Positions 30,103 through 34,704 of a stretch of 64,000 bases of DNA are shown here, piece after piece; position 1 is the first letter of the stretch, and each line of letters opens with the position of its first letter. The notes under the pieces were generated by a model that was not told where the DNA came from, searched no databases, and was given only the letters and a program-made list of their open reading frames with translations. Position numbers and translations under genes: made by a program. The DNA comes from Chloroflexota bacterium (GTDB lineage: Bacteria; Chloroflexota; Limnocylindria; P2-11E): positions 6,968 through 70,967 of the forward strand of contig JAJYLV010000001.1 of the NCBI GenBank assembly GCA_021787445.1, given 5' to 3'.

Positions 30103-30497
30103 TCCGACCGATGCGACCTCGCCGGCGCCGCCGCTCGCGCCTCGGTGACCTGGCGCGCCCCGCCGTCGCGGTCGTCGTCCTCGCCGCCGGTCTGCTGCTG
30201 AGCGGTGCGTTCGTCGGGATCGCGGTGCAGCAGTCGAGCGTGGATAGGCAGGCGCGCGTCGCGCAGCAGCAGATCGACGCGGAGCTCGCGAAGCGCAGCG
30301 AGCTGGAGTCCGCGATCGCGCAGCGGAAGACGGATGCGTACGTGATCGACAAGGCGCGCGACCTCGGATACGTGCGGCCGGGGGAGGGCCTGATCGCCGT
30401 CGAGCGCGGTCCGTCCGGGCTGCCGACCGTGCGGATCAACTCCTCGGACGGGGGCCGCTTCGCGCGCTGGTGGGCGCTGTTCTTCGGCGCGAAGTAG
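30099..30497 (+). CDS. Septum formation initiator family protein (FtsB/DivIC-like).
   Basis: An Arg-rich N-terminus is followed by a single TM helix (AVAVVVLAAGLLLSGAFVGIAV), then a coiled coil (QQQIDAELAKRSELESAIAQRK) and a conserved YVIDKARDLGYVRPGE tail. The ATG overlaps the preceding stop as ATGA. Confidence 0.55.
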   Translation: MIRPMRPRRRRRSRLGDLARPAVAVVVLAAGLLLSGAFVGIAVQQSSVDRQARVAQQQIDAELAKRSELESAIAQRKTDAYVIDKARDLGYVRPGEGLIAVERGPSGLPTVRINSSDGGRFARWWALFFGAK

Positions 30498-30506
30498 AAT
30501 GCGATG

Positions 30507-30578
30507 CGCGGGGTGGTGGAGTGGTACCACGCGGGGCTCATAACCCCGAAGCCCTGGGTTCGAATCCCAGCCCCGCAA
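30507..30578 (+). tRNA. Initiator tRNA-fMet with anticodon CAT.
   Basis: It folds as a cloverleaf with acceptor CGCGGGG/CCCCGCA, showing the C1·A72 mismatch, D stem GTGG/CCAC and anticodon stem CGGGG/CCCCG. The anticodon stem has three consecutive G:C pairs closing the CTCATAA loop. The T arm is CTGGG-TTCGAAT-CCCAG, the discriminator is A, and CCA is not encoded. The C1·A72 mismatch together with the 3 G:C pairs are bacterial initiator identity elements. Confidence 0.85.
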
Positions 30579-30618
30579 CAGTCGTCCCCCGCGGCCCTCT
30601 CGCTCAGGAGAAGGCCGT

Positions 30619-30891
30619 TCAGCGCGCTCGGACGCCCTTCCGGCGCCGCTCCGTCCCGGCGCTCCCCAGAGGCTCCCTCTCCGCGTCGGCCATGAGCCGC
30701 GAGGGATAGACGCCGAGCGCTTCGGCGATCTGCGCCAGCGCGTCGACCGAGATGTTCCGGTAGCCGCGCTCGACGAGCGAGATGTAGGTGCGGTGGAGGC
30801 CGGACTCCGCGGCGAGCGCCTCCTGCGACAGGCCGACGTCCTGGCGGTAGCGGCGGATGACGCGACCGACACGGGGAGCGAGTGCTGGCAC
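30619..30891 (-). CDS. XRE-family helix-turn-helix transcriptional regulator.
   Basis: RRYRQDVGLSQEALAAESGLHRTYISLVERGYRNISVDALAQIAEALGV is a Cro/C1-type HTH. Confidence 0.75.
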   Translation of the reverse strand: MPALAPRVGRVIRRYRQDVGLSQEALAAESGLHRTYISLVERGYRNISVDALAQIAEALGVYPSRLMADAEREPLGSAGTERRRKGVRAR

Positions 30892-30966
30892 GGCGCGAGG
30901 GTGTGCGCCGCCGAGACAAGGAGTCTACAGACGATAGTCTGCAAGCGCCGTCCGATCACATGCCCC

Positions 30967-31194
30967 GTGAGCTATCGGGTGCGGAGCGTCGGGCGGTGGC
31001 GCGACCTCGCCGACGCGCGCGACGAGTCCGTCGACCGCCTCGCGTTCGCCCTCGCGGTCTTCGGCGCGGAAGCGACGCTGCGCCACGTGCGCCGCGCCGG
31101 CACCGTCACGCTGTACGACCGCCACGGACGCGAGCTGCTCGCGTACGAGGGCGAGCGTCTCGCCGTCCGCGGCGGTCCCTACCTGCGCAGGTAG
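30967..31194 (+). CDS. Hypothetical 75-aa protein divergent from the XRE regulator gene.
   Basis: The GTG start at 30967 lies in the frame of track ORF 30793-31194. Third codon positions are strongly GC-rich, and the product VSYRVRSVGRWRDLADARDESVDRLAFALAVFGAEATLRHV... is non-repetitive. The overlapping Arg-rich frame 30882-31223 is judged an artefact. Confidence 0.35.
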   Translation: MSYRVRSVGRWRDLADARDESVDRLAFALAVFGAEATLRHVRRAGTVTLYDRHGRELLAYEGERLAVRGGPYLRR

Positions 31195-31247
31195 ACGCCC
31201 GATCGAAGGCGCGGATCCGATAGACTCGAGGTCTCCACCTCGATATC

Positions 31248-31320
31248 GGCTGGGTAGCTCAGTGGTCAGAGCAGGCGACTCATAACCGCCAGGTCGTGGG
31301 TCCGATCCCCACCCCAGCCA
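31248..31320 (+). tRNA. Elongator-type tRNA with anticodon CAT (tRNA-Met, or possibly tRNA-Ile2 read by lysidine).
   Basis: The acceptor is GGCTGGG/CCCAGCC, the D arm GCTC-AGTGGTCA-GAGC and the anticodon loop CTCATAA. The T arm is GTGGG-TCCGATC-CCCAC and the discriminator is A. It lies immediately upstream of tilS, 6 nt before the tilS ATG. Confidence 0.75.
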
Positions 31321-31325
31321 CCGCC

Positions 31326-32756
31326 ATGACGAGCGCGACGACACCCGAGCGGATCCGCGAGACCGTGCGTCGCTACGCGCGGGAGCACGACCTCCTGCAT
31401 CCCGGCGCGATCGTCGTCGCCGTGTCCGGCGGCGCGGATTCGACGGCGCTGCTGCTCGTGCTCGCCGACCTCGCCCCGGAGCTCGGCCTCGTCCTTCATG
31501 TGGCGCACTTCGATCACCGCATCCGGCGGAGCGGCGCGGCGGACGCGCAGGCGGTCGCGGACCTCGCGGCGCGCGTCGGCGCGCCGATCCACGTCGGCCG
31601 GGCGGAGCGCGTGCCGCGCAGCGAGGACGAGGCGCGCCGGGCCCGCTATGCCTTCCTCCGGCGCGTCGCCGCGGACCGCGGAGCGGCCCAGGTCGCGACC
31701 GGGCACACGCGCGACGACCAGGCGGAGACGGTGCTCCTGCACATGGCGCGGGGGAGCGGCATCGGGGGTCTCGCGGGGATGCGTCCGTCGCGCGACGGCA
31801 TCGTGCGTCCGCTCCTGTGCATGGGCCGGGCGGAGACCGAGGCGGTATGCCGCGCCGCGAGGTCGACGCCACGCGAGGATCCGTCGAACCGGTACCTGCG
31901 CTACGCGCGCAACCGCATCCGGCGGAAGGTCCTGCCGGAGCTGCGCGCCATCAACCCGCAGGTGGCGGCGGCGCTGGCGCGTCTGGCGGACAGCGCCGCC
32001 CTCGCCGCGCACGCGGCGCGCGGCGCGGCGGAGCGCGCTCTCGTGGCGGCCCAGCGTGACGGCGCGGTCGATCTCGACGCGCTCCGCGCCGTGGACCCCG
32101 TCACCGCCGTCGACGCGCTCACGCTCGCGTGGGAGCGGGCGACGGGGAACGTCCTCGCGGCGGCGCATCGCGAGGCGCTCGCGCACGTGGCCGCGCGGCG
32201 GGACGGCAGCATGTCGCTCGACCTTCCCGGTGGCCGCATCGTCCGCGAGTACTCCTCGCTTCGGATCGAGAGGCGCGCCGCTCCCGCCTCGGAAGCGGCC
32301 GCGGGTCGCGGCCCGACGCACGATGGGCCGTCCGCGGCGCCGCCTGGTGACCTTGCTCTCTCGCTCGGCGAGCCGGTGGAGTGGAACGGTTGGCGCATCG
32401 AGCTCCTCGAGAGGCGCCCGGAGGCCGCGTGCGACGTCGCAGCGCTCATCCCCGCGGGCGACGCGGACGGACTCGTCGTGCGCGCGCGCCGCGCGGGCGA
32501 CCGGATGGCGGGGTCGCATACGAGGATCCAGGACGTGTTCACCGACGCGAAAGTCCCGGCGCGCCAAAGGTCCCTGCTGCCGCTGGTCGCGACCCGCAGC
32601 GGAGAGGTCGCTTGGATCCCGGGTATCGCGGCCGCGTGGAATGAGGTGTCAGACGGGTACGTTCTTGTGGCACACCCACCAGCGGCATGGGAGATGCCCC
32701 GCCGGGCCCCGGGATCGCGCGTAGCATCTTCGTATATGGGCACAGAGGGAGACTGA
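31326..32756 (+). CDS. tilS: tRNA(Ile)-lysidine synthetase.
   Basis: The PP-loop motif VAVSGGADSTALL is present, followed by HFDHRIR, then the TilS substrate-binding and C-terminal domains. The start is the ATG at 31326. The track ORF 31296-32756 begins inside the tRNA. Confidence 0.8.
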   Translation: MTSATTPERIRETVRRYAREHDLLHPGAIVVAVSGGADSTALLLVLADLAPELGLVLHVAHFDHRIRRSGAADAQAVADLAARVGAPIHVGRAERVPRSEDEARRARYAFLRRVAADRGAAQVATGHTRDDQAETVLLHMARGSGIGGLAGMRPSRDGIVRPLLCMGRAETEAVCRAARSTPREDPSNRYLRYARNRIRRKVLPELRAINPQVAAALARLADSAALAAHAARGAAERALVAAQRDGAVDLDALRAVDPVTAVDALTLAWERATGNVLAAAHREALAHVAARRDGSMSLDLPGGRIVREYSSLRIERRAAPASEAAAGRGPTHDGPSAAPPGDLALSLGEPVEWNGWRIELLERRPEAACDVAALIPAGDADGLVVRARRAGDRMAGSHTRIQDVFTDAKVPARQRSLLPLVATRSGEVAWIPGIAAAWNEVSDGYVLVAHPPAAWEMPRRAPGSRVASSYMGTEGD

Positions 32757-32757
32757 C

Positions 32758-34704
<1,947 letters not shown>

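Follow-up and report, generated by a model that had tools for sequence, protein, structure and literature searches.

Is a tRNA with a CAT anticodon that directly precedes tilS, the gene of tRNA(Ile)-lysidine synthetase, the substrate of the enzyme encoded next to it, or is it an ordinary tRNA-Met? The question is raised by a 64-kb stretch of a genome from Chloroflexota, Candidatus Limnocylindria (hereafter the window), in which two CAT tRNAs, tRNA 1 and tRNA 2, lie in front of tilS and ftsH. A preliminary description had suggested that tRNA 2, the one next to tilS, is tRNA-Ile2 and the substrate of TilS. We reach a different conclusion: judged from sequence, tRNA 2 is most probably an elongator tRNA-Met and, by position, the orthologue of the tRNA-Met that Firmicutes carry between divIC/yabR and tilS. 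The story of a substrate encoded with its enzyme is probably wrong; the tRNA-tilS junction is real and conserved. Our comparison covers the 64 kb of the window genome and ±10 kb of its relatives; the labels L001-L330 denote the other loci compared.

ARAGORN detects exactly two tRNAs in the window, at 30507-30579 and 31248-31322, both on the + strand and both with the CAT anticodon. They match the Rfam family RF00005 with 65.9 and 64.2 bits, respectively (gathering score 29), and flank an XRE-family gene with an HTH_3 domain, which confirms the arrangement first described. The gene order is class-A beta-lactamase-like, DivIC/FtsB-like, tRNA 1, XRE, a small open reading frame (ORF), tRNA 2, tilS and ftsH, in a genome of about 73% G+C. 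Among contigs representing one genome per species, the best TilS matches come from metagenome-assembled genomes of Chloroflexota / Candidatus Limnocylindria, with 56-72% identity; a protein collection contains nearer relatives at 78%, labelled Chloroflexota. We compared nine Limnocylindria loci at the species level (window, L001-L005, L325/L327, L329 and L330). In all nine, the order beta-lactamase-like gene, divIC, initiator tRNA, variable interval, CAT tRNA, tilS, ftsH is kept. Tetranucleotide similarity gave no assignment of metagenomic contigs to Limnocylindria, its signal being driven by GC content.

tRNA 2 is of the elongator type, with the acceptor stem GGCUGGG/CCCAGCC (G1:C72, C3:G70, U4:A69, G5:C68) and the discriminator A73 at 31320, after which CC is encoded and CCA is not. 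The G1:C72 pair and the regular stems had been reported before, and both stand, save that the anticodon stem contains an A31·C39 mismatch. The anticodon loop combines C32, A37 and A38 with CAU, features that are common to tRNA-Met and so do not discriminate. In the T loop (31301-31307), UCCGAUC, C55 replaces the near-universal U55, the site of pseudouridine 55. C55 is present, within UCCGAxx, in five of the nine Limnocylindria species (window, L001, L002, L005, L325) and U55 in the other four (L003, L004, L329, L330); where tRNA 2 has C55, the T loop of the neighbouring initiator tRNA is the normal UUCGAAU.

Across the Limnocylindria copies compared, the acceptor stem, D arm and anticodon loop are invariant. 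The anticodon and T stems vary by compensatory substitution, with nine pairs changed on both sides among seven sequences. In the alignment 95.9% of cells are paired and none of 500 shuffles does as well; unpaired cells occur only at 31:39, where every copy has A·C, A·G or A·A. Because the cloverleaf is kept by compensatory changes, tRNA 2 is, by its covariation, a working tRNA and not a relic, and we rejected a pseudogene on the same ground.

In the acceptor stem, tRNA-Met and tRNA-fMet usually have C3:G70, G3 or A3 is exclusive to tRNA-Ile2, and C4:G69/C5:G68 are very frequent in tRNA-Ile2 (Silva et al. 2006). All three type-I TilS systems studied read 3:70, 4:69 or 5:68; a change of C4:G69 to G4:C69 nearly abolishes the activity of BcTilS, and TilS enzymes are known to reject tRNA-Met. 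The window TilS is itself of type I, with a PP-loop N-terminal domain carrying SGGxDS, a CTD1, and a CTD2 carrying PxxxRxxxP. It aligns over residues 13-438 to Geobacillus kaustophilus TilS (3A2K), its VPARQRSLLP standing opposite IPRMERDRWP at the CTD2 motif. The acceptor-stem determinants of tRNA 2, whose inspection the preliminary description had itself proposed, are C3:G70, U4:A69 and G5:C68; none is of the Ile2 type, as neither G3/A3 nor C4:G69 nor C5:G68 occurs. With classical tRNA-Ile2 (E. coli ileX and ileY; B. subtilis, PDB 3A2K) tRNA 2 shares the CAT anticodon, C32, A37, A38 and A73; unlike them, it is without these acceptor marks, and its 31:39 pair is mismatched instead of A:U.

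For a reference, we collected 111 elongator-type CAT tRNAs in one generic scan of metagenome contigs. Fifty of them are classical tRNA-Ile2 with G3/A3; C4:G69 is found in 45 of these, and C32, A38 and a Watson-Crick 31:39 pair in all. Another 44, clearly of the Met type, fall into three groups. Members of the first, with U32, match the tRNA-Met of Geobacillus and B. subtilis and occur in Thr-Tyr-Thr-Met clusters; those of the second, with A32, lie near tRNA-Trp, as in Actinobacteria; the third is E. coli-like and proteobacterial. (In P. acnes, a Met-Thr(GGU) operon has been described.) A further 11 tRNAs have an A31·G39 mismatch, and five resemble the types upstream of tilS. An anticodon arm otherwise almost identical to that of classical tRNA-Ile2 characterizes the 11 A31·G39 tRNAs (for example L222, L250 and L264; A31·C39 occurs for example in L224, L241 and L273, all among metagenome loci L203-L322).

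A position-specific profile of Ile2 versus Met, which makes no leave-one-out errors, gives tRNA 2 log-odds of -26.4 bits and its Limnocylindria copies -18 to -35 bits, with E. coli ileX at +28.7 and metT at -22.5; ileX carries C3 and is thus not trivially inside the rule that defines Ile2. A second classifier, a Silva-type ratio of mean differences to Ile and Met, ranges from 0.54 to 0.78 in Ile2 (ileX 0.73) and from 1.01 to 1.64 in Met (metT 1.05). tRNA 2, at 1.15, and its Limnocylindria relatives, at 1.12-1.26, fall in the Met range. By both measures the tRNA scores on the Met side, in agreement with the first half of the refutation that the preliminary description had set for tRNA-Ile2. The A31·C39 mismatch points the same way: it is present in eight of 25 U32-type tRNA-Met and in none of the 50 classical tRNA-Ile2. 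Met-type elongators lie beside initiator tRNAs on three other metagenomic contigs; within the metagenomic set, no classical tRNA-Ile2 adjoins tilS and none adjoins an initiator (0/50 each). The Chloroflexota tRNA-Ile(GAU) of L030 has a GGGCC acceptor in common with classical tRNA-Ile2 and unlike tRNA 2. No tRNA of the GGCUGGG type was found in the metagenome sample.

Two other approaches were abandoned. E. coli anchors taken alone favour ileX for tRNA 2, yet are uninformative for other phyla. Hierarchical clustering of 141 CAT tRNAs, including those of 120 viral-contig loci, gave no clean classes, the phage tRNAs being too aberrant; no TilS gene was found in these 120 loci.

The neighbourhood of tilS in other phyla bears on the same question. 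Within 10 kb of 80 tilS genes we find 46 tRNAs, 32 of which are CAT; almost all of the latter lie on the same strand and directly 5' of tilS, in at least six phyla. We analysed 26 such tilS-upstream tRNAs, from Acidobacteriota, Chloroflexota, Omnitrophota, Thermodesulfobacteriota, Eiseniibacteriota and others. Every one has C3:G70 with G4/U4-G5 and none is a classical tRNA-Ile2; nine have U38, as against A38 in 50 of 50 classical tRNA-Ile2. In Vicinamibacterales the tilS-upstream tRNA exists in two distinct forms, GCCGGAG…CUCAUAA and GCCGGUG…CUCAUAU (L028, L043, L047, L072 and L076 versus L017, L025, L026, L059, L060 and L062), both with the rare C2:G71. A different proximity of tRNA-Met and tilS is seen at L274:550-1970, where a U32-type tRNA-Met lies just past the 3' end of tilS on the opposite strand.

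A further comparison is with Geobacillus genomosp. 3, whose locus we fetched with the G. kaustophilus TilS sequence rebuilt from the PDB alignment. Its gene order is mazG, yabO, yabP, yabQ, divIC, yabR, tRNA(CAT), tRNA-Glu, spoIIE, yabS, yabT, tilS, hpt and ftsH. The CAT tRNA in this slot (GGCGGUG UA GCUC … UACGG UUCAUAC CCGUG … CACCGCC A) is a U32-type elongator tRNA-Met, with -56.6 bits and a ratio of 1.41, and several of the tilS-upstream tRNAs of Acidobacteriota have exactly the same acceptor stem. The B. subtilis tRNA of this Firmicutes slot, between divIC/yabR and spoIIE-tilS-hprT-ftsH, is known as trnSL-Met1. tRNA 2 resembles the Firmicutes tRNA-Met in its anticodon, elongator cloverleaf, C3:G70 with purines at 4 and 5, G1:C72 and A73, and it occupies the same strand and the same slot between divIC and tilS-ftsH. 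There are differences too. In Geobacillus, the tRNA carries U32/C38 and G31:C39, tRNA-Glu comes next, and 4.5 kb with three sporulation genes separate it from tilS, whereas tRNA 2 carries C32/A38, A31·C39 and C55, comes after an initiator tRNA and borders directly on the start codon of tilS.

The two genomes also share the order tilS, ftsH, …, pabB, pabA; in the window, pabB and pabA remain downstream at about 39.1-40.9 kb. In L310, an unrelated metagenomic contig whose TilS is 39% identical, the order is mfd, mazG, …, initiator tRNA, one ORF, CAT tRNA, tilS. The locus would then be an ancient conserved cluster of divIC, tRNA(s), tilS, (hpt) and ftsH. Because the Geobacillus slot holds a plain elongator tRNA-Met, we regard tRNA 2 as its probable positional orthologue; by this synteny, a CAT tRNA 5' of tilS is best explained as the elongator tRNA-Met of an old cluster, not as a substrate that was brought next to its enzyme. 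The Met-Glu tRNA pairs carried by the metagenomic contigs L299 and L309 do not belong to the tilS region. The hpt gene of the Geobacillus order tilS-hpt-ftsH is absent between tilS and ftsH in Limnocylindria (window 32757-32811; L325, L329, L330).

Whatever the tRNA, its junction with tilS is strikingly tight. In the window it reads CC-GCC-ATG: the tilS ATG lies 5 nt past A73, close enough to the 6 nt first given, and 3 nt past CC. The longest mechanical ORF opens inside the T arm of tRNA 2, at GTG 31296, just as reported before. In all nine Limnocylindria species the first in-frame ATG, GTG or TTG of tilS falls 0-3 nt past the CC or CCA of the tRNA (Table 1), and in L003, L004 and L005 there is no alternative start codon ahead of the SGGxDS motif. 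The differences between the window and L329 in tilS codons 2-9 are partly synonymous third-position changes and are therefore consistent with translation of these codons; an independent assembly calls the same 476-residue product with the same start. Outside Limnocylindria, the tilS ATG of L310 overlaps the A of CCA, and the gap is 3-9 nt in three Acidobacteriota loci.

Such an arrangement leaves no space for a promoter or a Shine-Dalgarno site between tRNA 2 and the tilS start in the nine species. Direct comparison of ten loci (window, L001-L005, L325, L329, L330 and L310) reveals instead a TANNNT motif in front of the tRNAs. It lies 5-6 nt 5' of the initiator tRNA in ten of ten loci, which implies almost no 5' leader; 5' of the second tRNA it lies at 8-11 nt in seven of the ten and at 21-25 nt in the window and L329. 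TANNNT is scarce, with 31 occurrences on the + strand of the whole window. A simple sigma-70 scan found no full -35/-10 promoter. A terminator-like hairpin follows the initiator tRNA in L001 and L002.

Since a -10 box precedes the tRNA and tilS has no independent expression signals, its start codon following the tRNA CC(A) by 0-3 nt, co-transcription of tRNA 2, tilS and ftsH is strongly implied by the architecture; this part of the preliminary description holds. As sequence motifs, separate -10 elements stand a few nucleotides 5' of the two tRNAs, and we propose that tilS, probably with ftsH, is transcribed from the tRNA-Met promoter. RNase Z cuts after the discriminator of CCA-less tRNA precursors. 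Endonucleolytic 3' maturation of the CCA-less tRNA 2, by cleavage after A73 with an RNase Z-type enzyme, would free a tilS mRNA with a leader of 2-5 nt, which would have to be translated in a leaderless fashion. Little TilS would be made per transcript, while the downstream ftsH would use a strong Shine-Dalgarno site. The probable start of ftsH is the CTG with which its table entry begins: the first ATG/GTG is at 32812, the conserved N-terminus is encoded 5' of that position, the tblastn alignment to Geobacillus FtsH starts at 32770, and in L329 the annotation of the homologue begins at the equivalent CTG.

Several observations weigh against tRNA-Met as the identity of tRNA 2. The Met class of our reference is defined by exclusion (not G3/A3) and could hide a non-classical Ile2 family. 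With -28 bits, the acceptor stem supplies almost the whole log-odds of tRNA 2; elsewhere the molecule is neutral to slightly Ile2-like, at +5 bits with the short D loop included. Among E. coli tRNAs, ileX comes nearest to it (16 differences; metT, 22); tRNA 2 and ileX are identical in the 5' anticodon-stem strand GGCGA and in an 8-nt D loop, and the top BLAST hits are all PGAP 'tRNA-Ile'. The tilS-upstream tRNAs all have G1:C72, as against G1·U72 in 30 of 44 reference tRNA-Met, and many carry the otherwise very rare C2:G71, so they are not typical tRNA-Met either. In A. aeolicus, tRNA-Ile2 is without C4:G69/C5:G68 (Silva et al.), and non-classical forms of tRNA-Ile2 therefore do exist. The anticodon stem of tRNA 2 diverges quickly even between the window and L329, its relative with 78% TilS identity, and C55 is unexpected in a tRNA under heavy use. 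Any further CAT tRNAs of these genomes lie outside the sequence covered. Zero spacing to tilS has evolved more than once, and an obvious reason for it exists only where the tRNA serves as substrate.

One could accordingly see in tRNA 2 a non-classical tRNA-Ile2 with a Met-like acceptor, whose operon with TilS is conserved in several phyla; we think this unlikely, though it is the most serious competitor of tRNA-Met. Beyond the preponderance of CAT tRNAs next to tilS (32 of 46), the fused starts of nine Limnocylindria species and L310, the short gaps in Acidobacteriota, the similarity to ileX and the unusual G1:C72 and C2:G71 pairs, it can call on the tilS-fused tRNA of L310, which is truly intermediate (ratio 0.91, -4 bits), and on the need for some substrate. 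AUA accounts for 11 of 10,421 codons in 26 high-GC3 ORFs of the window (GC3, the G+C content at third codon positions), more than AUU (2), with AUG about 14 times commoner; it is absent from tilS, ftsH and divIC. As AUA is used and tilS is intact, a lysidine-type decoder is needed in spite of 73% G+C. tRNA 2, however, offers none of the acceptor elements used by isoleucyl-tRNA synthetase (IleRS) and by type-I TilS, the type found in the window, and both classifiers return Met. The syntenic Geobacillus tRNA is an elongator tRNA-Met and the Ile2 of Firmicutes is located elsewhere; many tilS-upstream homologues have U38 or A32, in contrast to C32 and A38 in 50 of 50 classical tRNA-Ile2; and the same tRNA type occurs in L253 with no tilS downstream. 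The Aquifex precedent is tied to a type II TilS without CTD2 and does not obviously apply. In the same vein, it is improbable that the tilS-upstream CAT tRNAs of Limnocylindria, Acidobacteriota, Omnitrophota, Thermodesulfobacteriota and others constitute an unrecognised Ile2 family with a Met-like acceptor stem and a weak or mismatched 31:39 pair, co-transcribed with its enzyme, the leaderless tilS mRNA arising by tRNA 3' processing; such a substrate-enzyme operon might be left over from a time when tRNA-Ile2 arose out of tRNA-Met. Far less probable still is a dual role, in which tRNA 2 is the sole elongator CAU tRNA, mostly kept as Met with C34, and a small fraction modified by TilS reads AUA. 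The mixture of Met-like and Ile2-like features, the rarity of AUA (about 14 times below AUG) and the physical coupling to tilS would suit it. It has no precedent, TilS enzymes reject tRNA-Met, tRNA 2 lacks the acceptor identity elements of IleRS, and nothing indicates that a third CAT tRNA is absent. It is equally improbable that tRNA 2 is in decay, or that it acts within the tilS leader as a tRNA-like cis-element, such as an autoregulatory binding site. Although the 31·39 mismatch and C55 are unusual, CCA is not encoded and the element overlaps the region where tilS translation must start, the compensatory changes in three stems among seven sequences (0/500 shuffles as good), the invariant anticodon loop, D arm and acceptor stem, and 64 bits with RF00005 all contradict decay, and the same mismatch is common in ordinary Met-type tRNAs. 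The elongator tRNA-Met hence remains our preferred reading of tRNA 2.

Table 1 Features of the tRNA-tilS-ftsH locus and of its counterparts in related loci
Feature	Coordinates	Strand	Evidence or sequence
DivIC/FtsB-like septum-formation gene, upstream anchor of the conserved cluster	30108..30497	+	Pfam PF04977
-10-like hexamer TAGAAT, 6 nt 5' of the initiator tRNA, overlapping the divIC stop codon	30495..30500	+	TANNNT comparison
Initiator-type tRNA (tRNA 1), CAT, CCA not encoded	30507..30578	+	ARAGORN, RF00005
XRE-family helix-turn-helix regulator	30619..30891	-	Pfam HTH_3 1.6e-16; PHROG transcriptional regulators
Small ORF, 77 aa (71 aa from 30979), divergent from the XRE gene	30961..31194	+	coding-type GC3
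-10-like hexamer TAGACT, 21 nt 5' of tRNA 2, candidate promoter of the tRNA-tilS-ftsH unit	31221..31226	+	TANNNT comparison
Elongator-type CAT tRNA (tRNA 2), most likely tRNA-Met	31248..31322	+	ARAGORN, RF00005, covariation, classifiers
tilS, type I tRNA(Ile)-lysidine synthetase, 476 aa	31326..32756	+	Pfam PF01171, PF09179, PF11734
Shine-Dalgarno-like GAGGGAG for ftsH, within the tilS 3' end	32745..32751	+	sequence reading
ftsH, last gene of the tRNA-tilS-ftsH unit (start probable)	32764..34704	+	Pfam M41, AAA, FtsH_ext
Interval between the tRNAs	window 30580-31247; L001:8732-9922; L002:285-869; L005:3032-3608; L325:9339-9921; L329:226-1457; L330:9299-9883		
tRNA-tilS junction, window and L329			ACC-GCC-ATG
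tRNA-tilS junction, L001 and L002			ACC-G-TTG
tRNA-tilS junction, L003			ACC-G-GTG
tRNA-tilS junction, L004			ACC-GTG
tRNA-tilS junction, L005			ACCA-GTG

tRNA 1 presents no comparable difficulty: by its sequence elements it is of the initiator tRNA-fMet type, as had been recognised. Like bacterial initiators, it has a C1·A72 mismatch, G2:C71 and C3:G70 in its acceptor (CGCGGGG/CCCCGCA) and three G:C pairs, G29-31:C39-41, in its anticodon stem (CGGGG/CCCCG). It departs from them in the D stem, GUGG/CCAC (D arm 30516-30531), where U11:A24 replaces A11:U24. A11:U24 is found in essentially all of 457 bacterial initiator genes (Silva et al.). The U11:A24 state is common only to the window and its closest relative L329 (L329:153-225); the other Limnocylindria, L001-L005 among them, have A11:U24. 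Homologues of divIC lie directly 5' of the initiator tRNA in L001-L005, and DivIC holds the same relative position in Geobacillus.

The interval between the two tRNAs serves as a slot for variable cargo. It is empty in L004, where it measures 73 nt, and holds an HNH endonuclease gene in L002, L005, L325 and L330, two HNH copies in L001, HNH and XRE genes in L329, and the XRE gene with the small ORF in the window. The HNH reading frame runs into the 5' end of tRNA 2 and stops at a UAG formed by tRNA positions 8-10. L329 carries an XRE homologue, 87% identical; none is present in the same interval of L001-L005. The small ORF, with a GC3 of 0.94 and a G+C content of 0.54 at second positions (GC2), resembles the real genes of the window genome, and a Logan assembly calls it as a 71-aa gene from 30979; Pfam and PHROG searches gave no match for it, and no homologue was found in L001-L005. 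The XRE gene and the small ORF, earlier described as inserted between the tRNAs, are indeed a lineage-specific insertion and one state of this slot.

How does the junction compare with known ones? tRNAs and mRNAs share transcripts elsewhere, as in thrU-tyrU-glyT-thrT-tufB of E. coli, where tufB keeps a spacer with a Shine-Dalgarno site; mitochondria produce leaderless mRNAs by 'tRNA punctuation'. As in the tRNA-mRNA co-transcripts, tilS is a protein gene that would be transcribed from a tRNA promoter, but its spacer, unlike that of tufB, is 0-3 nt after CC(A). As in mitochondria, the 5' end of its mRNA would arise by tRNA 3' processing with almost no leader; unlike there, a single junction is concerned, in a free-living bacterium that otherwise uses Shine-Dalgarno sites (ftsH). 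Leaderless mRNAs are also known from Actinobacteria: in P. acnes, leaderless starts are 29% GUG and 3% UUG, and in S. coelicolor the leader is under 10 nt long in 264 mRNAs. The very short or absent leader and the tolerance of GUG and UUG starts are common to these and tilS. The actinobacterial 5' ends, however, are triphosphate ends set by transcription start, whereas that of tilS would be a processing product. We found no described tRNA-tilS linkage or tRNA-processed leaderless bacterial mRNA in the literature, with the reservation that our coverage is incomplete and absence is not proof; the ava2C paper says nothing on gene linkage. The direct and conserved contact of tilS with a tRNA 3' end is a robust and new observation on known themes, namely tRNA-mRNA co-transcription, leaderless translation and mitochondrial tRNA punctuation.

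Altogether, both tRNAs are of ordinary kinds with some unusual details. In annotation, a CAT tRNA beside tilS is not to be named tRNA-Ile2 from its context alone: the widespread tRNA-tilS linkage appears to involve a look-alike tRNA-Met, inherited with the divIC…tilS-ftsH cluster. Were these tRNAs Ile2 after all, they would define a new Ile2 identity set and another way for type-I TilS to separate tRNA-Ile2 from tRNA-Met. The zero-spacer junction, for its part, is a bacterial case where the 5' end of an mRNA may be fixed by the maturation of a tRNA at its 3' end, and tRNA processing may thereby limit the translation of TilS, an essential tRNA-modifying enzyme.

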